Below the pieces are notes generated by a model that searched no databases, was not told the DNA's origin, and worked only from the letters and a program-made list of their open reading frames with translations. Position numbers and translations under genes: made by a program. From Deltaproteobacteria bacterium (GTDB lineage: Bacteria; Myxococcota_A; Polyangia; DRWM01; JAAZOP01), in assembly GCA_016218765.1 (NCBI GenBank), contig JACRCZ010000056.1:28162-92161 (forward strand): DNA of 64,000 nucleotides, read 5' to 3'. Shown piece by piece: positions 5,117 to 49,004 of the stretch. Positions within the stretch are counted from its first letter, which is position 1. Each line of letters begins with the position of its first letter.

Positions 5117-5166
5117 GAGGGCGCGGAGATCCGGCTTACCGCTGAGACGCTGAGGGCGCTGAGAGG
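5117..5166. repeat. Dispersed 50-bp periodic element, copy 1 (copy 2 at 36021-36070)
   Basis: gagggcgcggagatccggcttaccgctgagacgctgagggcgctgagagg aligns to 36021-36070 with about 2 substitutions and 2 single-base indels. Confidence 0.8.
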
Positions 5167-5201
5167 AACGCTGAGAGCACAAGGGGGTGGGGCTACCCAC
5201 G

Positions 5202-5249
5202 ACCGCTCCACCGCTCCACCGCTCCACCGCTCCACCGCTCTACCGCTCT
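5202..5249. repeat. Tandem octamer (ACCGCTCC)4(ACCGCTCT)2
   Basis: Read directly. The array contains the TAG stop (5240-5242) of the adjacent minus-strand gene. Confidence 0.9.
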
Positions 5250-6283
5250 GCCCACCCCGTCACGTCGCCCCATGGAGTCGGCAGGAGCACCCACAGGCCG
5301 GGTGGGGGACCGTCTTCGATGCGGTCGAGCCGCACGTCGGCGAAGCAGAATGCGACGACGTCGCCGTCCGGTCCTGTTCGCAGCTCGGTCCCGGCGCGGA
5401 GGGAGACCCGCTCGGACTCCTGCGCGTCGTCGCCCGCCGTCGAGGGCTCCGCTGACGCGGGCGGCGCAGAGTCGGCGACGGCCAAACGATCGGCGCGCAC
5501 CCACCCGCGCACGAGCAGAGTGGGAGAGGGATACAGCACCTCGCGCCAGCCGTCCTCTTCCGCCCCGAGGCTCTTGACCCGCACGTGCGCGTTTCCCTCG
5601 GGCCGCAGCACGGCCAGCACCGCCCCGTCCGGGCGGTCGTGAACGGTCGTTTCCGGCGCCGTCTCCAAGTCCGCGACCTCGAACGCCACGTTGAAATCGT
5701 GCCGTTCGTAGACGCGACCGACGCGCGTCTCGATCACCCATCCGTGGGCCCGCACGGCCGGCGTGTCCACGTCGAACAGCACCCAGCCGTCCTTGCGTTC
5801 GACGGCGACGCCCGGACCGCCCGGAACGAGCTGGACGCCTGGACCGTCGCCCGCGATCGGCTCGTCCGGGGCGGGGCAGAGCACGACCCGCTCGGTCGGC
5901 ACGGCCGCGAGGTCGTCGGGGCGGACCCACAGCGCGACGCGCATGCCTGCGCCCTCGACGACGACACGCACGGCCTCGGACCGCTCCTCGGCCACGAGCA
6001 TCTCGAGCGGAGGCGCCGGCGAGGCGTCGCCCGACGGTTCGCGCCACGGTTCGTCGAAGGACGGCTTCCACTCGCCCGCACGGCCGAGCACCGCCCGGCG
6101 CGGGTGTTCGGCGCTGAACCCGTCGTAGAGGGCGTGCGGATCGGGTCCGGACACGGCGAGCGAAACGTCCCGACCCGGTGGAACCGGGTCAACCGGAACG
6201 GCGCCATGACCCGCGGGACAGGCCGCGAGGAGCGGGGCCGTCGCCCCGAGCACCGCAACCCAAGTCGTCCAGCGTCCGCGCAC
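5240..6283 (-). CDS. Hypothetical lipoprotein, possibly with SH3-like beta modules
   Basis: GTG 6283 with a GGAGG RBS, signal peptide ending LLAAC, and recurring RAHGWV/LVRGWV/DVTGWA segments. Confidence 0.6.
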
Positions 6284-6430
6284 GCTCCGCCTCCCCAACC
6301 CGACGAGGGAACCGTAGGACCACCGGCGGTGCGAGGTCAACGCCGGCCGCCGCGCGCCCCCTGACCGAACCGCGGGCCTCGGGCCCGCGGCTGCTTCGTC
6401 GCCGCCGGCGCTGCACGCGGGCGTTCGATG

Positions 6431-6439
6431 TGCTAGCGT
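6431..6439 (+). promoter_or_regulatory. Extended -10 element (TG-c-TAGCGT) 6 nt before ATG 6446; probable leaderless transcript
   Basis: Motif spacing fits, and there is no Shine-Dalgarno before the ATG. Confidence 0.35.
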
Positions 6440-6445
6440 CCAGGC

Positions 6446-8167: not shown

Positions 8168-8197
8168 GTGCCCTTCCCCCGACGGTTCCGGTCCCCG

Positions 8198-11100
8198 CTA
8201 GCCCAGATACCCCCGCCTAGCCAAACCGAAGGGCAATGGCACCGAAGGGACGGAGGCGGGCGCGGCGGAGGAGGGATCCACTTCCATCATCGCCCATGCG
8301 GTCGCGACGGAGTCGTCGAGGACGTAGCGGGCGGTGAGGGTGCGGCCGCCGATGCTGGCGCGGTGGGCCTCGGCCTCGCCGACCAGCTCGACCGTCGCCT
8401 CGCCTTCGTGCATCCCGACCACACGCACGTCGCGCGGGTCGACGGCCATGCCAACCCCCAGGGCCTTCGTGACCGCCTCCTTCAGCGTCCACAACACGGT
8501 CGCGCCGTCGCCGTTGAGCCCGACCGCGCCGGCCAACCGCGCCTCGTCGTCCGTCAACACGTGACGCACGAACGCCTCGTCCCGCGGCTCCACACGCTCG
8601 ACGTCGACTCCCACGCGGGTGCCGGAATTCCGCGGCGCCAGCACCGCGATCGCCCTCCCCGCCCCGTGCGAGATGGCCAGGAGCGGCAAGAGGTGCTCCA
8701 GGTCCGTGCGACCCGCAACGCGCACCACCGGCGCGCCGCGGGGATCCGCCGCCACGCCGATGTCCTTGTCCCGGATCGCCGCGCCCTCCGTTTCCAGCAG
8801 GAACGCCGACACCAGACGCTTGGCGGCGACTCGCCCGCCCAGCCAGTCGACGCGGCGCTTGCGCGACCCGATCTGCCGGAACAACGTCGCCTCGGCCGGC
8901 CCCAGCACCGCCGCGGCCACCACGTCCGCACTCGCCGCCAGCACGTCCAACCGCACGTCGACGCTCTCGGGCGAATCGAGGAACGACGCCGTCGCCGGCC
9001 GCGCCCCGGCCAACGGACCGGTCTCGATCAACGCCACGTCGCGCAGCCGCTCGAACACCGCGCCGTCCTCCCCGAGCAGCTCGACGTCGAAGACGTGCAC
9101 GCGCGCGCCGGTTCCGGCGGCGGTCGTTCCTTCCTTGGCCCGCACGCGGACCACGATCTCCCGGCCGGGCGCCGGCGTGTCGAGACGTTCCGCGCGGCCG
9201 ATCCCGTGCGGCAACGCATTCACGCCGTGACGGCACATCGTCCAGAGCCCGGCGGCCTGCAACCCGATCTCGCGCAGGCGCGGCCCGCAGAGGTCCCCGA
9301 ACGTCGCATCGGCCGCCGACGGCGGAATCACCGCCCGCGCGACGAGCCCCTCCGGACCCACGCCCGTCGCCGCTGTCAGCACCCGGAAGCTCGGACCGTG
9401 GAAGAAGTGCCGGTAGATCTCCGGCGCTTCGGGCCCGCGCGCTTCCAGCAGCCGCAGTTGGCCCAGCGGCCCCAGCGTCGGGTCCCCCTTGGCGCTCCTT
9501 TGCGTTCTTGGCGCACTTTGCGCGAAATCCCTTCCCCCGTCGGACATCGCCGCGGCCTTCGCCCGGAAGTGCACCGCCTCCAGGGGTCGTCCCGTCGCCG
9601 CGGTCGAGCGCGACTCGAGCACGCACTCCACGCCGTCCGCTCCGCGCTTCGCCCGCGCGACGACCGTCACCGGCCGCCCCGGATGGGCGCGAACGGGGCG
9701 CTCGAAGGACACGTCCTCGATCGCCACGTTGCCCGCGCCAAGAACGCGGCGAGCGGCCTGGGTCATCAACTCCAGCCCGACGACGCCCGGGAGGACCGGG
9801 ATGCCCTCGATCACGTGATCGAAGAGGAAGGACTGCCGTTCGGGATCGAGGACCAGCGAAACCTCGGCCTCATCGACGGGGGCCGCGAGTCCGATGCCGC
9901 CTTCGCGGAGTTCGGCGGCAGAACCGTCGAACGACTTCGGGGCCGGAAGCGAAGGAACCATGACCGCGGGCGCAGCCGCGACGCTCGCCGCCTCGCCGGC
10001 GATACGGGGTTTCGCGAGCGCGCCGAGCTTCCCGCAGACGACGACCTCGCCGATGGCGCCGCGGTCGATGAGGTCAGCGGCGAGGGGCACGCCGATCTCC
10101 GGCGGCAGGAGGTCGACGCCGCGCTCGACGAGGATGGTGCGCATGCCGCCCGCGACGGCCATGCCGATGCCGTCCCAGCCGGTCCAATCGATGGCCAGCG
10201 CGCGCGTCGCCGGGTCGTTCGAGGTGATCTCCCACGCCAGGCGCGCGACGGTCTCGTTGGCCGCGGAGTAGTCGATCTGGCCTTCGTTGCCGAAGCGCCC
10301 GGCGACCGAGCCGAAGACCGTGAAGAACGCGGGGCGGTCGTCGCGCACCAGGGCCCACAGGTGCAGGGCGCCCAGCGCCTTGCCGCGAAAGACGCGGTCG
10401 AAGCCGGCCGCGGTCTTCGAGGCCAGGGGCCGGCTCTCCTCGACCCCGGCGCCGTGGACGACGCCGCCGATGCGGCCGAAGCGCTTCCGCACGCCGTCGA
10501 GCGCCCGCGCCACCGCGTCGCGATCCGAGAGATCGCACGACTCGTAGTGGACCTCGGATCCCGCCGCGCGGTAGGCGGTCAGCGCGGTCGCGGCGCCCTT
10601 CGCCCGGCGCAGCGGGACCAACTCGGCGTCGACGCGCGCCGGCGTCACGCGCTCGCCCATCGCCGTCAGGCGCTGCCGGATCGCGGCCCGCTCGGCCTCC
10701 AGATCCAGGTTCTCGGCGCCTTCGGGCGGCCGCGCCACGATGTCGAGCACCGCCAGGCGGCAGCGGTGCCGCCGCGCCAGCTCCGCGCCGATCGCCGCGG
10801 TGATGCCGCCGGCGCCGCCGGTGAGCACGACGACCGATTCGGGACCGAGGTCGGGCGAGCCGGCCGACGGGACCTCGCGCGCCAGCGCCGGCGAGCGCCT
10901 GCCGCCCGCTACCCCGACCTCGACCATGCCGTCCGCCGTCGCGGCCTCGGCCAGAATCGCCCCGACGACATCCGCGGCGCCGTTCAGCGGCGACACGTCG
11001 ACAGCCTTCACGACCGCCTGCGCCCACTCGCGCGCCACGGCCTTGGTGGCGCCGGTGAGCGCGGCGCCCAGCGTCGAGCCGGCCGGAGCGGTGCCGATGC

Positions 11101-14100
11101 CGCACGAGCCGCCGTTGCGGGTCAAGGTGATCAGGAACGAGTCGGCCACGGGCGTCCCGGCCTGCCGCTCGAAGGTCCGCGCCAGGTGGAAGAGGAACCG
11201 CACGCGGCCGTGGACTTGCGCCGCGTCGTCACCGCACGCGTCGGTGATGCCCAGCAGGTTGACGATGCCGAGCGGGCGGCCGACGGCGAAGCAGAAGCCG
11301 AGCGCCGACTCGAGGTCGGCCTCGAGATCGGCGCCGTCGCCCGCCGGCTCCGCGTAACGCAGCGGCAGCACCCGCACGCCCCGGCGCCGCAGCTCGGATT
11401 CGAGCTCACGGGCCCGCGGGCCGCCGTCGCTCGCCACGACCAGCGCACGACCCGCGACGGACGCGGCCTCCGCGGAAGGCGGAAGTCCCTCGTTGGCGAC
11501 ACCCCAGACGCGGAAGCGGCCTCCGCCGAGGTCGCCGAAGTCGATGCTCGTCGGGTCGAGGCGCTCGCCTTCCGGCGCCGGCGGGATGCTCGGCCGCACG
11601 CGGGCGGCGGGCCGCTCGGCCTTCGGCGTCGCGTCGACCGCGCGCAGGGTGTGGCGCACGACCCGGGTCTCCGGCCGCGCGTAGCCGGTCACCGCACGGA
11701 GCCAATCGGCGTGCTTCGTGGCGTCGATCCGCCCGTCGAGACGCTCCGCCACGCGGCGGTAGAGCGCGCAGGCGATCTGCGAGCCGAAGCCGGCGGCCAG
11801 GCGCAAGGCGTACTCGCACTCGTGGGGTCCGCCGCGCGAGAGGTTGAGGTCCCCCAGCTCGGGATCGGGCTCGCGCAGGTTGGGGATCGGCGGCGCCTCG
11901 CCGCGCACGAGCGCGGTGAGCGCGACGGCGTCTTCCAGGCCGGCGCCCATCGGGTGGCCGGTGTAGCCCTTGGTGTTGGTGACCAGGACGTGCCGGGCGT
12001 TTTCCCCGAAGGCGCGGCGCAGGGCGGCGATTTCGGCCGAGGCGCTGCCGCCGCGGGCCGGGGTGTAGGTCTCGTGGGACATGAACAGGCAGCGCGGCGC
12101 CAGGTCGGCGCGGGCGAGGCCGTGGAGGCGCTCCGCGTCCGCGACGAGCGCCTCGACCACCTCGGCCACGTGGCCGCTGTCCAGCCGCAGGGCATGGCCG
12201 CCGCTGTTGGCGCACCGGGTCGCCAGGACTTCCGCGAGCGGCATCACGCCGCGCTCGGCGCACGCCTCGGCGGTCTCGACGATGAGCGCGACGGCGCCCA
12301 TGCCGAGCAGCATGCCGTGGCGCCGCCGGTCGAACGGCAGCGCCGCGTCCTCGGCGCGCTCGTCCGTCGCCGCGGCGCCGGTGGCCAGGAACCCGGTGCC
12401 AATCCACGGCAGCAGCGCGTCGCTCGTCACGTCGTCGGCGCCGACGACGATCACCCGGCGGCAGCGGCCCGAGCGGATCCAGTCCTCGGCGGTCGCCAGC
12501 GCGAGCGACGTCGACGCGCACGCGGCATTGACCTGGAGGTTGGGGCCGGTGGCGCCGGTGAACGCGGCCACCTGGGCGTGCCCCAGGGCGAGCACCTCGA
12601 GCAGGAACGTCCGCGAGAACGACTTGGACGCGCCGCCGTTGTTGCGGGAGGCGATCTCGGAGGCGAAGCGGTCGTAGCCCGGGAAGGCCGAGGCGAAGAT
12701 CACTCCGGTCTCGCGGCCGACCGCCTCGGGCAGGCGCCAGCCGGCGCCGACGAACCCGCCGTTGCGCGTCGGCCGCTTCGTCTCGACCAGCGGCAGCCCG
12801 GCCTCGCGCAGCGCCTCGACCGTCGCCGCCAGCGCGAGGCGCGAGGTGGCGTCCAGGGTGCCGTCCAGCTCTTCCGAGGCGCCGTAGTCCTCGACCAGCC
12901 GCACGTCGTGGCCACGCGCGGCGAGCCGGATCACGTCGTCCGTGCTCTTCACCGCCGTCATCGTGGGCTCGCCGTCGGCGGCCTTGACGACGCGGACGAC
13001 GTTCTTGCGCACCATCTCCTGGCGCAGCCCTTCCGGGACCGAGTCGAACAGGGTCTCGCCGCGCAGCAGGCGATCGAAGTGGGCGGGGTCGAACGGGTCG
13101 TCGACGCCGGGCAGGCCGAGCGCGAGGCCGCTCACCACGACGGGAGTGCGGGAGGGGCGCTCGACGACGACGGGGGGCGGTGGGACGGAAGGGGGGCGGG
13201 AGGGAGTCGTCGGTTTTCGGTTTTCGGTTTTCGGTTCCGGGCCGGACCCCGCATCCGAACCGCGGGCTTCAGCCCGCGGCTGAGCCGAGGCACCCAGGCG
13301 CAGGTCCAAGCCCGGGGAGCGGGCGTCGAGGTCGACGGGGACGCCGTCGGCCCAGAGGGTCGCCAGGCCCTCGAGCAGCGAGCGGATCTCGCCGCGCTTG
13401 GGGAGGTTGGTCGTGCAGGCCGTCACGCAGCGTCCGGCGAGGATCTCGCCGACGAAGCCGCTGAGGGCCTTCTTCGGGCCGCACTCGACGAAGACCGCGA
13501 CGCCGGACGCCGCCATGCGCTCGACGATGCCGATGAACTCGACCGGCGAGGCGACCTGGCGCGCGAGCAGCGTTCGGATGCCGTCCGGGGAGTCCGGGTA
13601 CGGCTCGGCGTTGACGTTGGAGTAGACGGGGATGGCCGGCGCGTGCACGTCGGCCGCGTCGAGCACCTGGCGCAGCGGGACGGAGGCGGATGCGACGACG
13701 GCGGAATGGAAGGCGTGGGAGACCGGCAGGCGCGTGCACGGCACACCGCGGGCGTCGAACAGCGCCATCGCCTTGCGCACGGCGTCGGTGGCGCCGGCGA
13801 TGATGGTCTGGGAGGGCGAGTTCTTGTTCGCGGGGAGGACGTAGCCCTCGACCTGCCGCAGGACGTCCTCGACGACGCCGAGCGGCGCGGCGACGGCGGC
13901 CATCCAGCCCGGGTCGCCGCCGGCCGGCGTCGCGGCGGCCATCTCGCGGCCGCGCGCCGCGACGATGCGCAGCGCCTCGTCGACGCGCAGCACGCCGCCG
14001 ACGACGCACGCGGCATACTCGCCCAGCGAATGTCCGGCCACCACGTCCGGCCGCAATCCGTGCTCGCCGAGCAGCCGGGCGATGGCGACGTCGCAGGCGA

Positions 14101-17074: not shown

Positions 17075-17160
17075 TTCACACCCCCGACGACTTCTCCGTT
17101 GCGGCAAGCCGGAAACGGCCGGCCGGACGGCCCGCGGGACGAGCCGTCGCGCCGCGACCA

Positions 17161-17176
17161 AGCGAGAACGGTGCCA
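17161..17176 (-). promoter_or_regulatory. Candidate sigma54 (-24/-12) promoter for the PKS
   Basis: Minus strand TGGCAC-CGTTC-TCGCT has exact GG-N10-GC spacing and lies about 85 nt upstream of the GTG. Confidence 0.4.
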
Positions 17177-17346
17177 CACGGGGCCGGGACCGGACACCGC
17201 CGCCACCGGCCCGACCGCGACGGAATCACGAGCTTCGAAGGGCGGGCGGCCGAGGTGCGCAGCGCGCTACGCACCCGCCAAGGCACCGGGAAGGCATCCG
17301 CCGCTTCGCACGCCGCGAAGCGGCGTTCGCACCCGTTACGCCAGCC

Positions 17347-17367
17347 GCCCTTCGACAGGCTCAGGGC
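17347..17367. repeat. 21-bp imperfect palindrome GCCCTTCGACAGGCTCAGGGC (intergenic copy)
   Basis: Exact reverse complement at 45937-45957; variants at 35990-36010 and 45857-45876. Confidence 0.85.
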
Positions 17368-18196: not shown

Positions 18197-18326
18197 GATT
18201 GCTCCGCTCGCGGGCGGATGGCCCCGCGGCGCGCGCGACCCTAGCGCGGGTTGACCTTACGTTCCAGCGGCGTCAGGCTGCCGGTCGAGAACCGCGGCGC
18301 CCGCGGGCGCAAGGAACGGCGCGACC

Positions 18327-18965
18327 ATGGAGCGAACCGCTACCCTTCCCCATCGGTGTCCATCGGTGTTCATCGGTGGTTTCCTCCTTGTCCTGACCGG
18401 ACTACCCGGCTGCAGGAGTCGCCCGACGGGCGCGGACGGGAGCCACGAGACCGCGGTCACGGCGGCGACGGCGGCCGGGGACGGCGCGGCGACGGCGGCC
18501 GGGGACGGCGCGGCGACGGCGGAGGACGCGGCGACCGCGAGCCCGGTGCCCGGCGCGGAAGGCGGCGCGGAGGCGCCCGCGGCAGGCCCCGAGGACGTCG
18601 TGCGCCGCTACATCCTGCTCGGGGCGGCGGGTGGGGATCTGCGGCAGGCGCGCGAGCTGGTCGATCCGCGCTGCCTCGACGCGGGCGTCGGCCGGGTCGA
18701 GGCCGTGATCCTGCTCGGCGCCCGCATGGCCGTCGGCAGCGTCGAGACGACCCTGCTGGCATCCGACGAGGCGACCGCCAAGGTCGAGGCCCGCATCTCG
18801 GGGTCGGTCTACGCCGCCGACCCGGCCGGCTCCGTGGAGGTGCTCGGAACCAACGTCGACATCCGCGTCGGCGAGCTGAGCGCGAGCGGCATGGTCCGGA
18901 CGGCGACGCTGCGGCTGAAGAAGATCGACGGCTCCTGGCGCGTGACCTGTCGCGAAGCCGAGTGA
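18327..18965 (+). CDS. Hypothetical lipoprotein
   Basis: Signal peptide ending LPGC, an Ala/Thr/Asp linker, and a C-terminal NTF2-like-looking segment (LKKIDGSWRV). Confidence 0.6.
   Translation: MERTATLPHRCPSVFIGGFLLVLTGLPGCRSRPTGADGSHETAVTAATAAGDGAATAAGDGAATAEDAATASPVPGAEGGAEAPAAGPEDVVRRYILLGAAGGDLRQARELVDPRCLDAGVGRVEAVILLGARMAVGSVETTLLASDEATAKVEARISGSVYAADPAGSVEVLGTNVDIRVGELSASGMVRTATLRLKKIDGSWRVTCREAE
18345..18383. repeat. Decamer repeat element (CATCGGTGTY)n inside a signal-peptide coding region, copy 1
   Basis: cttccccatcggtgtccatcggtgttcatcggtggtttc matches 26315-26353 at 37 of 39 positions. Confidence 0.9.
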
Positions 18966-25211: not shown

Positions 25212-25239
25212 AGACTACCCGTGCGCCGTGCCGCGTCAA
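25212..25239 (-). promoter_or_regulatory. sigma70-type promoter TTGACG-N16-TAGTCT, 7 nt before ATG 25204 (leaderless)
   Basis: Both hexamers are near consensus and there is no SD. Confidence 0.5.
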
Positions 25240-25322
25240 GTGGCTGAGGCGCGCCGCCGTCGGGATCGGCTCGCCGAACGCGTCGCCGCCGGAGGGTCCC
25301 GCGATCGGGCCGGCCGGTCGCC

Positions 25323-26050: not shown

Positions 26051-26296
26051 CACGCCCCCTTCGGCCGGCGCGCACGCGCGCCAGACAACGCCGGCACCGT
26101 AACGACGACCCGCCAGACGGTCAAGAGCGAGAGCGCGAGCCGAGAGCACGAGCGGACCGGAACCACCCCTCCCGCCCACTCGACCCAGGCCGCCACGGAC
26201 CCGTTCCGCCCGTTCCGCCCATTTGACCCCCGGGCTCGCTCGCGTCAGTCTGTCGTCCGGCGCCCGCGGCCCGCGCGGGACGCAGGGAGGACGACG

Positions 26297-28327: not shown

Positions 28328-28475
28328 CGTTCCTCGACAGTCACCCGCAGGGTGGCGGGAGCGGGGCGCGAAGTCAATTGAACGCGGGCGGCCCCGCCGG
28401 CGTCGAAGCCCCTGTTCGCCGGCGCCGCGCTTGCGGCTGGATCGGCGGTGACGGGGGGAGTAGAAACGGATCCGG

Positions 28476-29252: not shown

Positions 29253-29262
29253 CGCCCGCGCG

Positions 29263-29316
29263 TCCCGCACTCCCCGCACCTCCCGCACTTCCCGCACTTC
29301 CCGCACTTCCTGCACT
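29263..29316. repeat. Tandem nonamer (TCCCGCACT)6, intergenic
   Basis: Read directly; two units are variant. Confidence 0.9.
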
Positions 29317-29385
29317 TTCGTTGCCGAGCCGCCGCGACGGCGGTATCCTGCCGCGGGAAGCCGGCGCGGAAGGCGGCGCGCGCGA

Positions 29386-31107: not shown

Positions 31108-31207
31108 GCTTCGAATCCGCGGCTGCCGGCGGTAGGTCAGGCCTATCCGGCCCGGACAGGGAGAGGTGGGGAGGCCGGCTGGAGAGAGGGGGATGGTCTG
31201 GCCGGTC

Positions 31208-33682: not shown

Positions 33683-33917
33683 CTCGATCCGCCTCCTCCC
33701 CCCCCGCTCTTCCGGAAGGTATCACGAAACCCGGGCCGCCACGCTTCCTCGTGCCGCCGCTTCCGCCCCACACCTCGGGCCCCCCCACTCGTCCCAGACA
33801 ACCAACCTCCCCACTCGCCCCGATCGACCAACTCCCCCCTCGTCCTCCTTGCCGGTCCCCGCCCGATGTGCTGCACTATGCGTTCGGGGGCTTGGCCTCC
33901 GGGAGGTGGCCCGATCC

Positions 33918-35969
33918 ATGAAGCGATGGAGAACCGTTGCGGCGCTGTCCTGGGCGCTGGCCGCGTCCTGCGATGGAAGTGCGACCCACACGACACCGGA
34001 CGAGGGCCAGCCGCCGCAGGAGGTGTGCAACGGCCGTGACGACGACGGGGACGGCCACTGCGACGACGCCTACGAGTGCTGTGCGGGGAGCGCGGTGGCG
34101 TGCGTGACGTCGTGCGGGACGGCGGGCTGGCAGCGCTGCACGGCGGACTGCCGCGTGTCGAGTGCGGAGGTGTGCCGGAAGCCGTCGGAGACGTGCAACG
34201 ACATCGACGACGACTGCGACGGGCAGACGGACGAGGTTCCGGAGTGCGGGGGCCGCTGGTTGTGGCGGAACCCGCTGCCGAGCTGGAACACGCTGAGCGC
34301 GGTCTGGCCGCTTCCGGACGGGACGGCCTGGGCGGTCGGCGCGGGCGGGGCGATTGCGCGGTGGGACGGGAGCGCCTGGACGGCCCAGCTATCGCCGACG
34401 ATCGAGGATCTGCGCGGCATCGCCGGTCCCGCCGGCGGGCCGCCGCTGTTCGCGGTCGGGCTGCACGGCACGACGCTGCGTTTCGAGGGTGGCGCGTGGA
34501 CGCGCGACACGGCTCCCGTCGCGGTCAACCTCCACGCGGTGTGGGTGGACGCGACGGGGACGGAGGCCGTGGCGGTCGGCGACCAGGGGACGGTCCTGCG
34601 GTGGAACGGCTCCGACTGGTTCGGCGGGACGGCGGGCACGGCGGAGGACCTGTTCGGGGTGTGGGGCGCGTCCGCGGACGACGTCTTCGCCGTCGGCGGG
34701 CACCGCGTGCTCTGCCGCTGGGACGGCTCGTCGTGGACGGCGCAGCAGCCGTACACCGACGAGGGCTGGCTGGAGGGGGTGTGGGGCTCGAGCGGCTCCA
34801 ACGTCTACGCGGTCGGTCGGGACGGGTGGGTCCTGCGTTTCGACGGTGCGGCGTGGCGTCGCGTGGGTCTGGCGTCCGAGGAGGACCTGTGGGACGTGTG
34901 GGGGACGGGTGCGAGCGACGTCTATGCCGCGGGGTCGCGCGGCACGATGCTGCACTGGGGCGGCGCGGCGTGGCTGCCGATGCCGACGGCGGCCGGCACG
35001 TCGGGCCTGCGCGGTCTGGGCGGCACCGGCGCGCGGGACGTGTGGGCCGTGGGCGAGTTCGGCACGGTCCAGCGCTACCAGGGCGGCGGATGGCTCGCGA
35101 TGGAGCACGGGCCGAACGACGACCTGGAGGCCATCGTCACCGTTCCCGGCGGAGGGATGCTGGCGGTCGGGCGCCACGAGGACACGACGTCGAACCTGTG
35201 GACCTCCGTGGTCTGGGGCTCGGACGCCGGCTGGCGCGCCGACCTGTGGTCGATCCGCGGCCAGATTCGCGACGCGTGGGCGGCCGGGCCGGACGACGCC
35301 TGGGTCGTCGGCTGGACCGGGGCGATCCACCGCTTCGACGGCGTCGCCTGGACGCGGGTCGACTCGGGGACGACGCGCGACCTCGAGGCGATCTGGGGCC
35401 TCGACCCCGCGCTGATCTACGCGGCCGGCCAGGACGGGACGCTCCTGCGCTGGGACGGCGCCGCGTGGACGGCGCTGGAGTCGTCCACCGACCGCGATCT
35501 CCACGACGTCCGCGGGCTACGGCCGGACGACATCTGGGCCGTCGGGGACGACGGCGCCGTCGTGCACTGGGACGGCATCGCCTGGACCGGCCACACCACG
35601 AACTCGCGCGCGAACCTGCTCGCGGTCGCCCCGGCGGCGGCGAACGCCGTCATCGTCGTGGGCGAGCAGCCGGGGACGAGCGGCGCGGGGACGGGCGCGG
35701 TGCTGCGCTGGGACGGGGCGCGCTGGGCGGAGGACGAGGAGTGGTTCCCGGAGCCGATGCTCGACGTCGTCGCCGTCTCCGCGACGGACGCCTACGCGGT
35801 CTCCGGGGCGGCGACGTGGCACTTCGACGGCTACGTCTGGACGGCGCTGGCCACCACCGGCGTCGGCCGCACGTTCGCCAGCGACATCTTCCGCGCCGTC
35901 GTCCACGACCCCGCCCGCGGCCTCCTCACCGCCGGCGGACACGGCGCCATCCTGGAGTGGCGGCCGTAG
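33918..35969 (+). CDS. Lipoprotein with Cys/Asp-rich putative metal-binding repeats and about 14 beta-propeller-like blades
   Basis: Lipobox AASC, two copies of E(V/T)CNxxDDDxDG, and repeated LxxVWG...VWAVG..G..LRWDG..W. Confidence 0.8.
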   Translation: MKRWRTVAALSWALAASCDGSATHTTPDEGQPPQEVCNGRDDDGDGHCDDAYECCAGSAVACVTSCGTAGWQRCTADCRVSSAEVCRKPSETCNDIDDDCDGQTDEVPECGGRWLWRNPLPSWNTLSAVWPLPDGTAWAVGAGGAIARWDGSAWTAQLSPTIEDLRGIAGPAGGPPLFAVGLHGTTLRFEGGAWTRDTAPVAVNLHAVWVDATGTEAVAVGDQGTVLRWNGSDWFGGTAGTAEDLFGVWGASADDVFAVGGHRVLCRWDGSSWTAQQPYTDEGWLEGVWGSSGSNVYAVGRDGWVLRFDGAAWRRVGLASEEDLWDVWGTGASDVYAAGSRGTMLHWGGAAWLPMPTAAGTSGLRGLGGTGARDVWAVGEFGTVQRYQGGGWLAMEHGPNDDLEAIVTVPGGGMLAVGRHEDTTSNLWTSVVWGSDAGWRADLWSIRGQIRDAWAAGPDDAWVVGWTGAIHRFDGVAWTRVDSGTTRDLEAIWGLDPALIYAAGQDGTLLRWDGAAWTALESSTDRDLHDVRGLRPDDIWAVGDDGAVVHWDGIAWTGHTTNSRANLLAVAPAAANAVIVVGEQPGTSGAGTGAVLRWDGARWAEDEEWFPEPMLDVVAVSATDAYAVSGAATWHFDGYVWTALATTGVGRTFASDIFRAVVHDPARGLLTAGGHGAILEWRP

Positions 35970-35989
35970 GGGAGGACGCGGAGAGGAGG

Positions 35990-36010
35990 GCCCTTCGGCG
36001 AGCTCAGGGC
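35990..36010. repeat. 21-bp palindrome variant GCCCTTCGGCGAGCTCAGGGC
   Basis: 18 of 21 positions match 17347-17367; lies between convergent genes. Confidence 0.7.
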
Positions 36011-36020
36011 GCCTTCGGCG

Positions 36021-36070
36021 GAGGGCGCGGAGACCGGATTCACCGCTGAGACGCTGAGGGCGCGGAGAGG
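36021..36070. repeat. Dispersed 50-bp periodic element, copy 2
   Basis: Aligns to 5117-5166. Confidence 0.8.
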
Positions 36071-36084
36071 TGCGCTGAGGGGGG

Positions 36085-43871: not shown

Positions 43872-46459
43872 CAGGAGCAGCTCCGTTCCGGCGGGGTGCC
43901 GGGCTCGGCCGGGGAGGAGATGACGACGGCGTCGTACTCGGCCGGACAGACGCGGGCGCACGAGCGGCACTTCACGCACAGGGCCGGGTCGATGACCTTC
44001 TTGCGCGTCCTGGGATCGGTGGTGATCGCCTCGGTCGGGCAGCTCCCGACGCAGGCGTCGCACCCGCGGGCGCACTTCGTGAGGTCGATGCGGTAGCTGA
44101 TGAGCGGCCGGCAGACCTTGGCCCGGCACCGCTTTTCCAGGATGTGCTCCTCGTACTCCTCGCGGAAGTGCCGCAGCGTCGTCAGCACGGGTCGCGGCGC
44201 GGTCTTCCCCAGGTTGCAGGCCGAGCCTTCGGCCACGGACTTGGCCAGGTCCTCCAGCTCGCGCAGGTCGCCGGGGATCCCGGCGCCGCAGGTGATGCGC
44301 GTCAGCAGCTCGAGCAGCCGGTGCGTCCCTTCGCGGCAGAAGGTGCACTTGCCGCACGACTCGCCGCGGGCGAACTCCATGAAGTAGCGCGCGGACTCGA
44401 CCAGGCAGTCGTCCTCGTCGAGGACGACGAGTCCGCCCGAGCCCATCATCGCGCCGGCGCCGGCGAGGGAGTCGAAATCGACGGGCGTGTCCAGCGCGGA
44501 GGCCGGCAGGCAGCCGCCGGAGGGCCCGCCGATCTGCACCGCGCGCAGCGCCTTCCCCCCCGGCACCCCGCCCCCCAGCTCGTGGACGACGCGGCGCAGC
44601 GTCGTCCCCATCGGCACCTCGATCAGGCCGGGGTTGACGATCTTCCCGGCGAGCGCGAACACGGCGGTTCCCTTGCTTCGCGCGGTGCCGACGGCCGCGA
44701 ACTCCCCGGCTCCGCGCTCGAGGATCCTCGCGGTCGCCGCCAGCGTCTTGACGTTGTTCAGCACGGTCGGGCGGCTCCACAGCCCCTGCTCGGTCGAATG
44801 CGGCGGCCGGACGCGGGGGTAGCCGCGCCGGCCCTCGAGCGAGGCCATGAGCGCGCTCGACTCCCCGCAGACGAACGCGCCCGCCCCCTGGCAGATCTCC
44901 ACGTCGAAGGGAATCGCCGTGCCCATCATCCCGTCGCCCAGGACGCCCGCCGCCCTCGCGTTCCGGACCGCCTCGGTCATCGTCCGCACGGCCAGCGGAT
45001 ACTCGGCGCGGACATAGACGTAGCCGCGGCGCGCGCCGACCGCGTGCCCGACGATCGCCATGCCTTCGAGGATCGCGTGCGGGTCGCTTTCCATGAGCGT
45101 GCGATCCATGAACGCGCCGGGATCCCCTTCGTCACCGTTCGCGATCACGTACCGCTCGTCCCCCGGCGCCTTGCGGCACTCCTCCCACTTCCGCGCCGCG
45201 CCGAACCCGCCGCCGCCCAGTCCGCGCAAACCGGCGCGCCGCACCTCGGCGATCACGTCGTCGGGCGGCACGGTCAGGGCTTTGGCCAGGCCCGCGTAGC
45301 CGTCGTGCCGCACGTACTGCTCCACGTCGGCGGGCACGATGCGTCCCGCGCGCCGGAGCAGCCAGCGCCGTTCGCCCGCGTAGCGCGGCAGGTCGTCCAT
45401 CACCGGCAGCAGCTCGTTCGGCTCCAGCGCTCCCAGCACCAGCTCGAACGGCGGCTCCTCCCCCGCGAGAAGTCGCGTCGCGATCGACTCCGCCGACGCC
45501 GCACTCAGGTGCCCGAAGACCAGCGGCGGCCACGCCGGATGCCGCACGATCGCCAGCGGCTCCGCGTAGCAGTGGCCCAGGCACCCGACCTCGAGCACGT
45601 GCCAAGGGGGAGTCGGGGGGGGAGTCGTGAGTCGTGAGTCGTGAGTCGTGAGTGCGGGCACGGACGAGCCGGCGACGCGGCGGAAGGCCTCAAGGACCTT
45701 GTCGGCACCGGCGGCCTTGCCGCAGGTCGCCGTTCCGACCCAGACGGTCGGCGTGGTCCCGTCCCAGAGGGCGCCCCACGCGGCGTCGGCGCGGGCGCGG
45801 AGGGCGGCGAGGTAGGAGAGGGGACCGGTCGCGGGCACTGGCTCGTGGCTGGCGCCGCCCTGAGCTGGTCGAAGGGTCGCTGGTGGCTGGTGGTCGGGGG
45901 CGGGCCCGCCCCGGACGGCGGTCGACGGTCGGCTTCGCCCTGAGCCTGTCGAAGGGCGGTCGACCGTCGCGGGTGCGGTCGGACCGGCTCCGAGCCCCGT
46001 CGTCGGTCCCCGGCCGTCCTTCGCTTCCAACTCCGCCTTGAGGATGATCCCCTGGACGGTGGTGGGGTCGGCCTTGGCGTGGATCGCCTGTCCGTCGAGG
46101 ACGACGGGGGCGAGGGTGCAGCAGCCGACGCAGGCGACGCGGTCGAGGGAGAACTCGCGATCCGTGGTCGTCTGTCCCGAATCGATGCCCAGGCGGCGGC
46201 GCCACTCGTCGAGGAGGATCTCCGAGCCCTTGAGATGGCAGGCGGTGCCGCAGCAGACGCGGACGGCGTGGCGTCCCGGCGGGTGGAAGCGGAACTGGTC
46301 GAAGAAGGTCGCGACGCCCCACACTCGCGCGGCCTCAACGCCCGACTCCTGCGCGATGCGCAGCATCGCCTCGCGCGACAGGTAACCCCCCGCGCGCTGC
46401 GCCTCCTGCAGCGCGGCGATCAGCCGCCCCGTGCGATGGGAAGGGGACTCACGACTCAC
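43871..46459 (-). CDS. Fused NuoE/HydC + NuoF/HydB-type NADH-binding flavoprotein
   Basis: NuoE-type CCGTAC/CVGCC, a Trx-like domain (TCG..GCLGHC), GLRGLGGGGF, NGDEGDPGAFMDR, GAFVCGE, GGPSG, ESCGKCTFCREG and two C-terminal ferredoxin motifs. The exact start is uncertain because the GTG lies inside a heptamer array. Confidence 0.88.
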   Translation of the reverse strand: MSRESPSHRTGRLIAALQEAQRAGGYLSREAMLRIAQESGVEAARVWGVATFFDQFRFHPPGRHAVRVCCGTACHLKGSEILLDEWRRRLGIDSGQTTTDREFSLDRVACVGCCTLAPVVLDGQAIHAKADPTTVQGIILKAELEAKDGRGPTTGLGAGPTAPATVDRPSTGSGRSRPSTAVRGGPAPDHQPPATLRPAQGGASHEPVPATGPLSYLAALRARADAAWGALWDGTTPTVWVGTATCGKAAGADKVLEAFRRVAGSSVPALTTHDSRLTTPPPTPPWHVLEVGCLGHCYAEPLAIVRHPAWPPLVFGHLSAASAESIATRLLAGEEPPFELVLGALEPNELLPVMDDLPRYAGERRWLLRRAGRIVPADVEQYVRHDGYAGLAKALTVPPDDVIAEVRRAGLRGLGGGGFGAARKWEECRKAPGDERYVIANGDEGDPGAFMDRTLMESDPHAILEGMAIVGHAVGARRGYVYVRAEYPLAVRTMTEAVRNARAAGVLGDGMMGTAIPFDVEICQGAGAFVCGESSALMASLEGRRGYPRVRPPHSTEQGLWSRPTVLNNVKTLAATARILERGAGEFAAVGTARSKGTAVFALAGKIVNPGLIEVPMGTTLRRVVHELGGGVPGGKALRAVQIGGPSGGCLPASALDTPVDFDSLAGAGAMMGSGGLVVLDEDDCLVESARYFMEFARGESCGKCTFCREGTHRLLELLTRITCGAGIPGDLRELEDLAKSVAEGSACNLGKTAPRPVLTTLRHFREEYEEHILEKRCRAKVCRPLISYRIDLTKCARGCDACVGSCPTEAITTDPRTRKKVIDPALCVKCRSCARVCPAEYDAVVISSPAEPGTPPERSCS
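45622..45653. repeat. Heptamer array (GAGTCGT)4GAGT in frame inside the HydB-like Trx domain
   Basis: Encodes LTTHDSRLTT. Confidence 0.9.
45857..45876. repeat. 21-bp palindrome family variant in the HydC-HydB linker
   Basis: gccctgagctggtcgaaggg; its reverse complement matches 17347-17367 except for 2 central bases. Confidence 0.75.
45937..45957. repeat. 21-bp palindrome, exact copy, in the HydC-HydB linker
   Basis: Exact reverse complement of 17347-17367; encodes RPSTGSG. Confidence 0.85.
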
Positions 46460-46478
46460 GACTGATGACTCACGACTC
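46446..46478. repeat. Heptamer array (GACTCAC)n, inverted relative to 45622-45653, overlapping the HydC start
   Basis: gactcac gactcac gactgat gactcac gactc. Confidence 0.85.
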
Positions 46479-46489
46479 GTTTCTCACCG

Positions 46490-47461
46490 CTACCCCAGGT
46501 GCTTGCGCCACTCCGGCGCCCAGTAGGCGAGGATGAAATCGGCGCCGGCGCGGCGCAGGGCCACAGCCGCCTCGCGGATCAGGCCGGAAAGATCGCCGTA
46601 GCCCTTCTCGGCGGCGGCGTGGAGCATCGCGTACTCGCCGCTCACGTGGTACGCGGCGATCGGCAGCAGGGTCCGCTCGCGCAGGCGCTGGATAATGTCG
46701 AGGTAGAACATGGCGGGTTTGACCATGAGCATGTCCGCGCCCTCTTCCTCGTCGAGGAGCGACTCGCGGAGCGCCTGGTTCACGTCGTCGTACGGCGCCT
46801 GGTAGCCGCGGCGGTCGCCGAAGGCGGGCGCGGAGTTGGCGGCCTCGCGGAAGGGTCCGTAGAGGGCCGAGGCGAACTTCGTGGAGTAGCTGAGGATCAG
46901 GGTGTTCTTGAATTCCGCGGCGTCGAGCGCCCCGCGGATGGCGCGCACCTGGCCGTCCATCATCGCGGACGGCGCGACGACGTGGGCGCCGGCGCCGGCG
47001 TGGGAGACGGCCATGCGGCCGAGGGCCTCGATGGAGAGGTCGTTGTCCAGCTCGCGGCCCTTGAGGATCCCGCAGTGCCCGTGGTCGGTGTATTCGCAGA
47101 GGCAGACGTCGGTGAAGCGCACCAGGTCCGGGTACGCCTTGGCGGTGACGCGGAGGGCCTGCTGGACGAGGCCGTCGTCGCGGCAGGCGCCCGTGCCGCC
47201 CGGGTCCTTGTCCTCGGGAACGCCGAAGAACAGGACGCCGCCCACGCCGGCTTCCGCGGCCGGAAGCAGCTCCTGCTCCAGCATGTCGATGCTCACCCGG
47301 GCCTGTCCGGCGAGGCTGGCGATCGGCTCGCGCCGTTTCGCGCCGTCGATCAGGAAGACCGGGTAGATGAGCCGGGCCGGGGGCACCGCGGGCGCCGCGA
47401 GCATGCGGCGCAAGGACGGGGTCGAGCGCAGCCGCCGCATCCTGGTTTCGGGGAATCCCAT
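46490..47461 (-). CDS. hemB: Porphobilinogen synthase (delta-aminolevulinate dehydratase), Zn-type
   Basis: RMRRLR, DVCLCEYTDHGHCG, APSAMMDGQV, YSTKFASALYGPFREA, MVKPA and AYHVSGEY. GGGAGG RBS. Confidence 0.97.
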   Translation of the reverse strand: MGFPETRMRRLRSTPSLRRMLAAPAVPPARLIYPVFLIDGAKRREPIASLAGQARVSIDMLEQELLPAAEAGVGGVLFFGVPEDKDPGGTGACRDDGLVQQALRVTAKAYPDLVRFTDVCLCEYTDHGHCGILKGRELDNDLSIEALGRMAVSHAGAGAHVVAPSAMMDGQVRAIRGALDAAEFKNTLILSYSTKFASALYGPFREAANSAPAFGDRRGYQAPYDDVNQALRESLLDEEEGADMLMVKPAMFYLDIIQRLRERTLLPIAAYHVSGEYAMLHAAAEKGYGDLSGLIREAAVALRRAGADFILAYWAPEWRKHLG

Positions 47462-47577
47462 CGTCGTCCTCCCGCGCGGGCCTCCCGCTCCCTCTCCATC
47501 CGTCGAGGGCGGCCGCGCAACGCCGGAGAACATAGTACAAGTCGGGCCGGGTGCGTAGGGGGCGGGGACGGGACGGG

Positions 47578-48912
47578 CTACAGCAGGATGACCGTGCGGA
47601 GCTGGAACCCGGTCATGTCGGAGTAGGTGTAGGGCCGGCTGCCGACCGAGAAGGTCTCGACCTCGTAGGTCGTCGGGTTGATCTTCGCCGCGTGGCTGCT
47701 TTCCTCCGCCACGGCCCAGACGTTGTGCTGGAAGTCGATCGCCACCCCGACCACCGAGCTGCCCACGCCCGGCACGTCGTGCACCAGCTCCACCGTGTCC
47801 TCGCTGATCTGGAGCACGTTCCCGCCCGTGTTGGCGACCCAGACGGACCCCAGGCCGTCCACCGCGAGGCCGCGGAAGAAGTTCGTCATGCCCGGTGCCG
47901 TGTAGGTGGTGTTCGTGGCCGTCGCCGGGTCATGCCGGTTGACGCAGCTCCCCGTCAACGTCCGGCCCGACGTCCAGATGCGTCCCTGGGCATCGGCGGT
48001 GATGCCGTAGCCGCAGGGCACCGTGACGTAGCTCGTGTCGAGCGCCGACGTGTTCACCCGCGCAAGCTGGCACATGCCGATCGTGCACATCGCGCCGACG
48101 ACCCAGAAGTTCCCGCGACCGTCAATGACACCGCCGTACGGCGAGTTCGTCACGCGCGTCTGCTCGAGGATCGCGCCGTCGTCGCCGTCGAGCTTGAACA
48201 CCTGGTTGCTGGTCAGCGCACCGATCCAGACGAAGCCGCCCTCGCCCGTCTCCGCGTTCTCCGTACCGTCCCACGCCGTCGCCCGCGCGCCGATCGCGCT
48301 GCCCCCGGAGAGGGGCGAATTCCAGAGCATGCACTCGTCCTCGCCCCAGGGCTTGACGTCGGTCGGTCCGGTCGAGGTCTGGATCGTGCCGTCGCCGTTG
48401 CGGTCGATGCAGTCCTCCAGGAGGCCGGCGAACTTGGTCACCGAGGACGGTCCACCGGAAACCTCGCGGTTGGTCACGACCATGTCGCCGTGGAGGTTGA
48501 CCGAGGTGCGCGAGGGGTCGCCGCCCGTCGTCTGCGGGCTGGTCCAGTACCGCCCGACCTCCACGCCGTCCAGCGTGCACAGCTTGGAGAGCTTGCCCTC
48601 GCCGGTGTCCGCGATCCAGATGTAGGAGTACTCGCCCGTCTCCTCGCAGCGGCTGCCCCATCCGCCGCCCTCCTCCGCGGCAGCGTCCTCCGCTCCGCCG
48701 CCGTCGTCGCGCGGCACGTCGGCGTCCGCGTCCGCGTCGGCTCCGGGGTGCCCGGAGCACTGGCAGGACCCGCCCACGCACGCGCCGCCGAGGTATCCGG
48801 TACCGAGGCACTGCGACGTGCACGCCGCGGGCTCGCACACCGCACCGCCGTCGTCGCCACACGCCGCCAGCGGCAGCATCGCCAAGCCTAGGCACGCCAG
48901 TTGCTTGATCAT
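47578..48912 (-). CDS. Lipoprotein with one defensin-pattern module and a Vgb/NHL-like beta-propeller
   Basis: Lipobox LAAC, six-Cys module at 48757-48837, YIWIAD..GKLSK, PSRTSVN, and C-terminal PYTYSDMTG. Confidence 0.8.
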   Translation of the reverse strand: MIKQLACLGLAMLPLAACGDDGGAVCEPAACTSQCLGTGYLGGACVGGSCQCSGHPGADADADADVPRDDGGGAEDAAAEEGGGWGSRCEETGEYSYIWIADTGEGKLSKLCTLDGVEVGRYWTSPQTTGGDPSRTSVNLHGDMVVTNREVSGGPSSVTKFAGLLEDCIDRNGDGTIQTSTGPTDVKPWGEDECMLWNSPLSGGSAIGARATAWDGTENAETGEGGFVWIGALTSNQVFKLDGDDGAILEQTRVTNSPYGGVIDGRGNFWVVGAMCTIGMCQLARVNTSALDTSYVTVPCGYGITADAQGRIWTSGRTLTGSCVNRHDPATATNTTYTAPGMTNFFRGLAVDGLGSVWVANTGGNVLQISEDTVELVHDVPGVGSSVVGVAIDFQHNVWAVAEESSHAAKINPTTYEVETFSVGSRPYTYSDMTGFQLRTVILL

Positions 48913-48940
48913 CGCGATCCTCCCTCTCCGACCCCACGGG

Positions 48941-48968
48941 AGTGTACGAGGGGGACGCGGCGCGTCAA
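48941..48968 (-). promoter_or_regulatory. sigma70-type promoter TTGACG-N16-TACACT
   Basis: Near-consensus hexamers about 30 nt upstream of ATG 48912. Confidence 0.5.
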
Positions 48969-48973
48969 GTACT

Positions 48974-49004
48974 TGGTTCGCGGTTCTTGGTTCTCGGTTT
49001 TCGG
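48974..49004. repeat. Heptamer array tggttcg-cggttct-tggttct-cggtttt
   Basis: Same family as 13211-13236; intergenic, abutting the -35 box. Confidence 0.7.

Follow-up and report, generated by a model that had tools for sequence, protein, structure and literature searches.

The stretch considered here (the window) comprises 64,000 nucleotides (C13:28162-92161) of G000, a metagenome-assembled genome (MAG) of a groundwater Deltaproteobacteria bacterium that consists of 154 contigs, totals 5.9 Mb with 72% G+C and is about 80% complete. It encodes a PfaA-like polyketide synthase (PKS) with the domains KS-ACP-ACP-AT-KS′-KR-DH-PPTase, in an open reading frame (ORF) at 8198-17266 on the minus strand, and “HydCB,” a NuoE-NuoF-ferredoxin fusion, along with a TauE exporter, Ser/Thr kinases, a sulfatase, hemB and several Cys-rich secreted proteins. 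Short tandem arrays and small hairpins lie between these genes and also inside their reading frames, where they probably represent selfish insertions that selection has tolerated. In a preliminary description of the window, these repeats were attributed to one active seeding process producing new peptide segments and gene fusions. For comparison, the closest congener with long synteny is the groundwater MAG JACRCX01 “Deltaproteobacteria bacterium NC_groundwater_1657” (G004), which is about 86% identical to G000 in DNA.

Seven translated repeat copies can be read in the PKS ORF, all the inserts described here lying on the minus strand. Within the DH domain, a solo arm of a GxxExxY-type cassette, “(CCTTTGCGT)n-CTTTGCGCGAAATCCC” (9478-9535), is read as RDFAQSAPRTQRSAKG; this arm is also found on the flanks of GxxExxY genes, at C105:21374-21888 and in G004, and its invariant end, CTTTGCGCGAAATCCC, has 19 copies in the G000 genome, 15 of these intergenic. 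This insert of 16-17 amino acids is absent from G005, which provides an empty site. The linker following AT carries a heptamer array, (CGGTTTT)x3.9 (13210-13236), read as EPKTENRKPT, and a hairpin of the repetitive extragenic palindromic (REP) type, hp1 (13251-13282), read as QPRAEARGSD; the linker is short and without the element in G005, G006, and G009. Between ACP2 and AT, hp1 recurs together with a variant second arm, CCCTGGCCCCGAAGGGACTCGGCG (14699-14771), read as VAESLRGQG...QPRAEARGSD, and QPRAEARGSD is therefore present twice in the protein (residues 847-856 and 1329-1338). At this linker G002 has a 58-aa gap, again an empty site, and the variant second arm also flanks a Y1 transposase gene in G004. 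According to a protein alignment, the PKS inserts are common to G000 and G004. Compared with G000, the G004 enzyme (G004:C120:83974-89412) has one extra QPRAEARGSD hairpin behind ACP1 and, following the heptamer, a 12-nt (SRPP)n expansion. A 21-nt repeat, GCTGCGTGGCGCCCCTACCGG (TGRGATQP), is found in two copies in the ACP-ACP linker (15142-15273), and only three exact copies exist in G000. The two ACPs with their linkers (14822-15535) form a 462-nt tandem duplication with 90% identity over 252 nt, which accounts for the two TGRGATQP copies; the unit is not a real dispersed family.

HydCB carries three or more translated copies. HydC (188-197 aa) and HydB (647-650 aa) are separate adjacent genes in the sister genera G006 and G007, and the closest NuoE homologues are 165-212-aa frames beside separate 647-650-aa NuoF genes. 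Only in G000 and G004 are the two fused, in one ORF of 862-875 aa by the HydCB alignment and of 870/876 aa by the comparison of NuoE homologues. The HydC-HydB linker of the window (45857-45957, minus strand) contains two 21-bp palindromes and GGCTGGT heptamers; the junction of about 80 aa has no counterpart in relatives, and the G004 version differs from that of G000. HydC-HydB is one real lineage-specific fusion whose junction is built of repeats. The repeats may have caused the fusion, or may have colonized its linker afterwards. Furthermore, a 7-nt array of 4.6 GAGTCGT units (ACGACTC on the coding strand; 45622-45653, minus strand) is read as ALTTHDSRLTT in a loop of the HydB thioredoxin-like domain. 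This loop insert, ALTTHDSRLTTPPP, sits inside the domain and is absent from G006 and G007, another empty site; in G004, the loop is 42 nt longer (6 heptamers, 14 codons), in frame, with an insert of 28 aa. On either side of the PKS and HydCB inserts, the domains lie in one open frame in both G000 and G004, and the two ORFs stay open through other linker indels as well.

Another heptamer array (GAGTCGT on the coding strand; 46446-46478, minus strand) fills the hemB-hydCB junction, where it has TGA in all frames and provides the GTG start of HydCB, whose N-terminus, MSRESPSHR, is array-encoded. The hemB-hydCB spacer (46460-46492) is essentially one GAGTCGT array. Since GAGTCGT arrays in coding-strand orientation contain TGA and GTG in all three frames, such a unit would halt an incoming ribosome and offer a restart codon, and the array is a possible translational-coupling module. 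The two inverted GAGTCGT arrays are 793 nt apart, and the chance of such neighbors is about 0.01-0.03, given 13 arrays in 5.9 Mb; they enclose hydC, the linker and the first 45 or so hydB codons. In the mRNA, the two arrays could pair to form a 32-bp long-range stem, like a cassette stem (see below) with the host gene as its “cargo.”

Signal peptides provide the third setting. The 10-nt unit CCATCGGTGT is repeated 2.9 times at 18350-18378 and again at 26320-26348. The first decamer triple, (CCATCGGTGT)x2.9 plus GGTTTC (18347-18383, plus strand), is read as PHRCPSVFIGG in the signal peptide of a lipoprotein (18327-18965), and the second (26317-26351, plus strand) as PHRCPSVSIGG in that of a GDPD lipoprotein (26297-27373). 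Each is preceded by a conserved ATG and leads, in frame, to a hydrophobic stretch with a lipobox (MERTATLPHRCPSVFIGGFLLVLTGLPGC, MPRLQTLPHRCPSVSIGGCFLLFSVLVPLSPAC). In G004, the signal-peptide decamer is identical at 29 of 30 positions and in the same frame, while its flanks are 80-85% identical. Decamer triples have a fixed number of 2.8-3.1 units, a constant GGTTTCC, a pyrimidine-rich tail and no secondary structure. Among the 69 intergenic triples, 48 are located upstream of same-strand gene starts, and a heuristic scan found at least 10 further exported-protein genes in G000 with a triple at the 5′ end, in any of the three frames and in either orientation. The exact 30-nt triple occurs in just two of 41 relatives of G000 and in at least 111 stretches from more than ten phyla, with hosts including Scytonema, Verrucomicrobiota, Planctomycetota, Acidobacteriota, Chloroflexi, Beta- and Gammaproteobacteria, Leptospiraceae, and Nitrospiraceae. 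In other phyla, the triple often takes the form of inverted pairs 16-85 nt apart. Four triples in the Verrucomicrobiales MAG PBAL01 (L040:4558-5972) surround truB, not a nuclease gene. The truB ORF there starts inside one of the triples (MFICVHLW...), i.e., the same element is at a gene start in an unrelated phylum. A role of the decamer as an arm of GxxExxY cassettes was considered, and no instance was found in G000-G004.

The arrays and dispersed elements reported earlier in the window were all reproduced by Tandem Repeats Finder (TRF) and by repeat and k-mer scans. The earlier count of at least 12 translated occurrences rises to at least 13, as predicted from the reading frames: seven in the PKS, three or more in HydCB, two in signal peptides and one in a defensin-module gene. 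The PKS, HydCB, and lipoprotein frames bear out that the copies sit in linkers, loops or N-termini and keep the frame, and the CGGTTTT heptamer and the 21-bp palindrome each occur inside and outside genes, as had been stated. Dispersal itself holds for the 7-10-nt arrays and the hairpins; the 12-nt, 24-nt, and 21-nt TGRGATQP repeats turned out to be local coding repeats.

Over the whole genome, arrays with periods of 7, 8, 9, and 10 nt (TRF; at least 2.8 copies and at least 85% match) number 163, 123, 204, and 124 in G000, far above the 3, 0, 7, and 2 found in a null genome of the same size and composition simulated by a 5th-order Markov model, and chance or composition is thereby ruled out as their source. 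Thirty-two families with at least five loci each take in 486 arrays. Their units include CCATC[T/G]GTGT (about 95 arrays), ACCGCTC[C/G/T] (about 55), AAAGGACGC (26-34), ACTCCCCGC (26-35), AAGTGCGGG (25-31), ACGACTC (10-13), and AAAACCG (8-9). Units of 12 nt are nearly all unique (51 units among 52 arrays), which places the 12-nt (DGMR)n and 24-nt arrays of the window among ordinary in-frame coding microsatellites outside the dispersed system. Two contigs, C54 and C69, end where decamer triples are clustered in tandem at a period of 53 nt; arrays thus break the assembly, and array copy numbers are lower bounds.

The arrays are not evenly placed. According to gene calls made with a rough codon/GC3 model of our own, 58, 63, and 62% of the period-7, -8, and -10 arrays are intergenic, a roughly six-fold enrichment, intergenic DNA being about 9% of the genome. 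Arrays of the octamer ACCGCTCN (a family of 46 arrays in G000) and of the nonamer CCCGCACTY adjoin the stop codon of an opposite-strand gene at a median gap of 6.5-7 nt, and the distance to the antisense stop is 15 nt or less for 12 of 16 octamer and 8 of 13 nonamer arrays. Of 63 arrays called “inside” genes, 29 have a strong in-frame coding signal on both sides; these lie mostly in Pro/Ala/Gly-rich segments, and the recurrent peptides include SPHSPH. Two paralogous genes in tandem (745 and 772 aa) at C118:87444-92227 are accompanied by three direct ACCGCTCC arrays, every one of them behind the stop of one or the other gene, which suggests that gene and array were duplicated as one unit.

A search for same-family arrays in inverted orientation 0.1-3 kb apart in G000 revealed small genes enclosed between them. 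By NCBIfam, two of these encode GxxExxY proteins (TIGR04256; E = 8.5e-35 and 3.3e-39) and one a four-helix-bundle protein (TIGR02436; E = 2.7e-19). When the ORFs of all six frames were searched with jackhmmer, the total came to four GxxExxY and three four-helix-bundle genes, all outside the window; the fourth GxxExxY gene (on C23) is a weak, degenerate match, and a separate family search gave only three. Six of the seven genes (the three strong GxxExxY and the three four-helix-bundle genes) are bracketed by inverted arrays or inverted repeats, and the degenerate C23 gene has only an 8-nt CTGCGGCT array alongside. Each bracketed cassette has its own unit: 9-nt ACGCAAAGG, 7/14-nt GGAACAC/GGAACTA, GGAGAGGTGGGGAGG, a 25-nt unit, and 7-nt CGTTTTT/CGTCTTT. 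Seven GxxExxY genes were checked in G002, G003, and G004, and four of them likewise have inverted arms on their flanks; in G002, GCGGAGA-type arrays, to be compared with the composite element at 5073-5177 of the window, flank such a gene. In the literature, repeat-bracketed GxxExxY or four-helix-bundle cassettes outside rRNA intervening sequences were not found, all mentions of “GxxExxY” being incidental. Two elements of the window carry cassette-arm sequence: the PKS DH insert (9478-9535) and an intergenic insert of 94 nt containing GGAGAGGTGGGGAGGCCGGCTGGAGAG (31108-31200, plus strand). The latter is a solo arm of the GxxExxY cassette type of C53 and G004-C158, with the arm sequence GGAGAGGTGGGGAGG at 31160-31174, and is absent from the otherwise collinear G004. 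Foldback hairpins were also considered as the main form of the arrays in G000 and rejected, only 26 of 846 arrays qualifying.

Hairpin elements form other classes. The family CCGAACCGCGGGCTTCAGCCCGCGG of about 30 nt, to which hp1 belongs, lies in the window at 13255-13279 and 14701-14725, with a variant at 6365-6390 (plus strand) that is 5′ of a Kelch gene and unaligned in G004. In most copies, CCGAACCGCGGGCTTCAGCCCGCGGCTG is followed 5-20 nt on by GCCGCGCCCTGAAGGGCGCGGTTCGG, forming an inverted doublet that folds as one hairpin (-29.6 kcal/mol, z = -5.4; -11.8 kcal/mol and z = -3.3 for the single hairpin). About a quarter of the doublets have heptamer arrays in front, as in the PKS. Exact copies of the 18-nt core number 145 in G004, 40 in G000, seven in G001, two in G002, none in G003 and none in 36 other genomes: the doublet family is genus-specific. 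By the same gene calls, 21 of the G000 copies are intergenic and 18 are in called ORFs, two of them certainly inside the PKS frame. The Y1 transposase family (PF01797) has two matches, in G004 only. One of these genes is flanked by related GGCTTCAGCC hairpins and by an arm, CCCCGAAGGGACTCGGCGGCT, that also occurs in the PKS; the exact REP core was not found within 1.5 kb of either gene. A different hairpin of 21 bp, GCCCTGAGC[CT][TG]GTCGAAGGG, has 21-22 copies in G000 and is nested in other elements: it stands at one fixed point in three of eight composite elements and also inside nonamer and heptamer arrays. In the window, it is present at 17347-17367, 45857-45876, and 45937-45957, the first of these copies (no strand assigned; k-mer scan) being the intergenic palindrome GCCCTTCGACAGGCTCAGGGC.

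Filled and empty sites among relatives, proposed earlier as the place to look for such insertions, are thus found at the PKS ACP2-AT, post-AT and DH positions and at the HydB loop, and between genes at the 94-nt insert and at a nonamer array. The latter, (CCCGCACTT)x7 (29255-29317, plus strand), begins straight after the stop of gene 28464-29252 and is cleanly absent at the orthologous site of G004, with collinear flanks. Elements have turned over since the split of G000 and G004, as the nonamer array and the 94-nt insert demonstrate, but the translated copies are older: all those that can be compared (decamers, HydCB arrays, and PKS inserts) are shared with G004.

Probably, then, these repeats are selfish block insertions belonging to at least three element classes and filtered by selection, such that a copy within coding DNA lasts only if it is in frame, free of stops and placed in a tolerant segment. 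In the first class, arrays of 7-10 nt would be the inverted arms of small cassettes enclosing a GxxExxY (PD-(D/E)XK-like) or a four-helix-bundle gene. The second would consist of REPIN-like doublets related to the hairpins flanking the IS200/RAYT-type (REP-associated tyrosine) Y1 transposase of G004, and the third of the 21-bp hairpin, which would insert into arrays; the in-frame 12- and 24-nt coding microsatellites would stand apart as a fourth, ordinary kind. The first three would each arrive as a discrete block, for the most part in intergenic DNA and in many cases right at a stop or start codon. Because G+C is 72% and most units have no stop codon, rare in-frame insertions in linkers, surface loops and N-termini would not be purged. 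Those that survive would become translated segments, n- and h-regions of signal peptides, start or stop codons and, in one case, part of a fusion joint, and slippage would later alter the unit number in frame-keeping multiples. GxxExxY, four-helix-bundle and Y1 proteins are candidate mobilizers, although both the agent and its way of moving the elements are what we infer. These results do not support one active seeding process as it was proposed: at least three unrelated classes and coding microsatellites are involved, and every comparable translated copy is already in G004, hence old. New peptides, as had been proposed, do arise in the form of inserts with filled and empty sites, and one fusion does have a repeat-built junction, with the causal role of the repeats being conjectural. 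The statement that no mobilizer exists in the window agrees with the absence of a transposase or nuclease among the window genes scanned, but candidates are present outside it: GxxExxY and four-helix-bundle genes flanked by arrays of the same kinds in G000, and Y1, the expected RAYT-type partner that G000 did not yield, in G004.

Several observations weigh against this interpretation. Just 26 of 846 arrays have an inverted partner within 150 nt, about 97% of the G000 arrays being solo arms, and for most arrays an origin as a solo arm is thus an extrapolation. In addition, no cassette of G000-G004 was found to have the decamer, octamer ACCGCTCC, nonamer CCCGCACTT or heptamer GAGTCGT as its arms. 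No match to the Y1 transposase was found in G000, weak evidence given that this genome is 80% complete. The gene model is a rough one and overcalls, with 91% of the genome called coding. Biases in position and polarity, such as arrays abutting stop codons and the 48 of 69 decamers 5′ of same-strand starts, could equally mean function. Finally, the repeat-bearing proteins are presumed from their sequences to be made and functional; neither enzyme activity nor movement was seen.

The main rival explanation, which is unlikely though not negligible, regards the arrays as functional cis-elements kept by selection (sites for nucleoid, transcription or RNA-binding proteins, stop/restart or 3′-UTR modules), with the coding copies as by-products. 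It would account for the family-specific placement 6.5-7 nt from an antisense stop or 5′ of gene starts, for the GAGTCGT arrays with TGA and GTG in three frames exactly at gene junctions, for a decamer that is 29/30 identical between two genomes at 80-85% overall, and for an identical 30-mer in more than ten phyla. A regulatory role has been discussed for comparable intergenic heptamer arrays in Xanthomonas, Nostoc, and Beggiatoaceae (PMC4692102; PMC4679880). However, gene cassettes have these same units as their inverted arms, copies lie in either orientation and within unrelated proteins, and whole arrays are present or absent between congeners with conserved flanks; besides, 32 unrelated families would require as many binding factors. 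These facts count against cis-elements as the sole explanation, and the two interpretations are compatible if inserted arms are sometimes co-opted.

It is also rather improbable that the “translated” copies are untranslated, i.e., that the long ORFs are chance frames at 72% G+C running over separate genes or pseudogenes, with the elements in functionally intergenic gaps. Stop codons are indeed rare at this composition, the gene caller overcalls, only the 29 of 63 “inside” arrays have strong coding signal on both sides, and several decamer “N-termini” could start downstream instead. Yet every insert in the PKS and HydCB is flanked by domains in the same frame without a stop, and this frame is open in both G000 and G004 even though their DNA differs by about 14% and by several indels, that of the HydB loop measuring 42 nt. 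The HydB loop insert, moreover, is within a single folded domain, which cannot be split, and the ATG and frame 5′ of both signal-peptide decamers are kept in G004.

Independent origin of the arrays in situ, by replication slippage from chance seeds and with shared units reflecting mutational or compositional bias, has still less in its favor and is very improbable. Unit numbers do differ between G000 and G004, the (SRPP)n stretch of G004 is an expansion, the unique units of the 12- and 24-nt coding arrays fit a local origin, and the empty G004 site of the nonamer array may retain a single degenerate unit. Against this, the Markov genome contains 0-7 arrays compared with the real 123-204, the families share non-repetitive flanks (GGTTTCC tails, CTTTGCGCGAAATCCC ends, and the GGAGACCGGATTCACCGCTGA core), and the decamer copy number is fixed at 2.8-3.1 units. 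An assembly or binning artifact, conceivable in an 80% complete MAG of 154 contigs of which C54 and C69 end in decamer clusters, can practically be dismissed, since the elements lie within long contigs with normal coding flanks and the independent MAG G004 has the same ones at orthologous positions over tens of kb.

Selfish insertions of this sort have known counterparts. Rickettsia palindromic elements are reportedly short selfish repeats that lie in frame in protein genes and are translated. The elements described here appear to resemble them in in-frame insertion, tolerance in surface loops and linkers, the addition of peptide segments and filled and empty sites among relatives. They differ in being 30-80 nt long, mostly non-palindromic tandem arrays and of many families at once (the Rickettsia elements are said to be about 100-150 bp), in supplying start and stop codons, signal-peptide segments and a fusion joint, and in residing in a free-living, 72% G+C, Myxococcota-like groundwater organism. 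By description the two are unrelated in sequence, and the likeness is one of way of working, not of membership. The kinds of element are already known, from these Rickettsia elements, REPINs and the cyanobacterial repeats treated below, whereas so many families together are not known in Rickettsia.

The cassettes recall the 23S rRNA intervening sequences in which an ORF for a four-helix-bundle protein (S23p/PF05635) lies between complementary arms that form a long stem. Likewise, three four-helix-bundle and three strong GxxExxY genes are enclosed by complementary arms in G000, but outside rRNA, with arms made of short tandem units and with gene-less single arms vastly outnumbering complete cassettes. 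In cyanobacteria, short tandemly repeated repetitive (STRR) heptamers and small dispersed repeats (SDR) have reportedly been described. SDR nest inside cyanobacterial heptamer arrays, and the 21-bp hairpin nested in arrays resembles them. As in STRR and other simple sequence repeats (SSR), the G000 arrays occupy many intergenic loci near the end of the upstream ORF, consist of a few fixed units of 7 nt (here also of 8-10 nt) and occasionally have copies at ORF edges; different are the unit sequences, the presence of about 32 families in one genome, the direct link to GxxExxY and four-helix-bundle cassettes, and translated in-frame copies with empty-site orthologues. Intergenic heptamer arrays near the upstream ORF are on record from Xanthomonas and Nostoc (PMC4692102) and from Beggiatoaceae (PMC4679880), and the SDR of cyanobacteria are cited along with REPINs (PMC3116915). 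In contrast to the phase-variable SSR of contingency loci, no frame-shifting change in unit number was observed: the sole DNA-level difference between G000 and G004 within a coding array, 42 nt, is divisible by 3, and the decamer count is fixed at about 2.9.

REPINs are REP doublets accompanied by RAYT or IS200-type Y1 transposases (Bertels and Rainey, 2011; PMC3116915). The inverted doublets of CCGAACCGCGGGCTTCAGCCCGCGG are similar in folding into one long hairpin, in having dozens to more than 100 copies within one genus, and in that related hairpins flank a Y1 transposase in G004. They are dissimilar in that no Y1 gene was detected in G000, in that nearly half of the copies lie in called ORFs, two of them in the PKS frame, and in that heptamer arrays often precede the doublets.

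If these insertions are what they seem, they offer a checkable case outside Rickettsia of selfish micro-repeats turning into protein sequence, with empty-site controls and several element classes. They give the heptamer-type repeats, long noted to be in excess in large genomes of high G+C, a set of identifiable partner genes, namely those for GxxExxY, four-helix-bundle, and Y1 transposase proteins, and they point to a possible route to gene fusion, exemplified by hydC-hydB, via a repeat-derived joint that is open to experiment. Annotation of such genomes has to reckon with possibly repeat-derived start and stop codons, signal peptides and “linkers,” and with the breaking of contigs at arrays. 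More tentatively, gene-less arms of these transposase-less cassettes may act as portable expression or coding modules that bring stops, GTG/ATG restarts and signal-peptide segments to gene junctions and weld neighboring genes, the decamer with its pyrimidine-rich tail being kept preferentially at the 5′ ends of exported-protein genes as a ready-made n/h-region. If true, high-G+C bacteria would have in these elements a general source of new coding sequence that has yet to be described.

Other elements of the window are intergenic or local. An element of about 50 nt at 5110-5177 and 36017-36063 belongs to a larger composite with eight copies of the same part order. In the first copy (5073-5177, plus strand), a G-rich array (GGGAGGGCGCGGAGA) is followed by the core GGAGATCCGGCTTACCGCTGA and then by (CGCTGAGN)4, the 8/9-nt CGCTGAGN array occupying 5140-5177; G004 is not syntenic over 5073-5248, hence no empty-site comparison of this composite. 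The second (35969-36079, plus strand; core 36029-36049) has dispersed copies with 86-90% identity on other G004 contigs, and synteny with G004:C120 stops at about 35983, exactly at this composite, to resume on another contig. The octamer array (ACCGCTCC)x5.9 (5202-5248, plus strand) overlaps the 3′ end of the gene at 5240-6154 (minus strand) and provides its TAG stop and last codons. A 26-nt unit repeated 2.5 times (33783-33845, plus strand) is intergenic, belongs to a family of at least six loci and is aligned within the G004 match; a link to the 25-nt arms of the C151 four-helix-bundle cassette was considered, and BLAST found none. Between divergent genes, a heptamer-like (CGGTTYT) array (48972-49004, plus strand) is present in G004 with different units.

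Compared with the window, G004:C120 has about 2.2, 6.8, and 6.5 kb of extra sequence at 18249-18268, 25225-26219, and 27374-27380, respectively, all at intergenic points of an otherwise collinear sequence; the 6.8-kb segment stands in place of about 1 kb of the window. Among the local coding microsatellites, a 24-nt in-frame tandem, (AATAAGDG)n x2.5, is located at 18462-18522 (plus strand), and a 12-nt x8 in-frame array, (DGMR)n, at 22630-22726 (minus strand). The latter forms a linker in the gene at 22237-23055, which encodes a secreted protein with three defensin-like (cysteine-stabilized) modules joined by DADADA and (DGMR)n linkers, and a neighboring secreted protein of 444 aa (47578-48912) begins with a similar single module.

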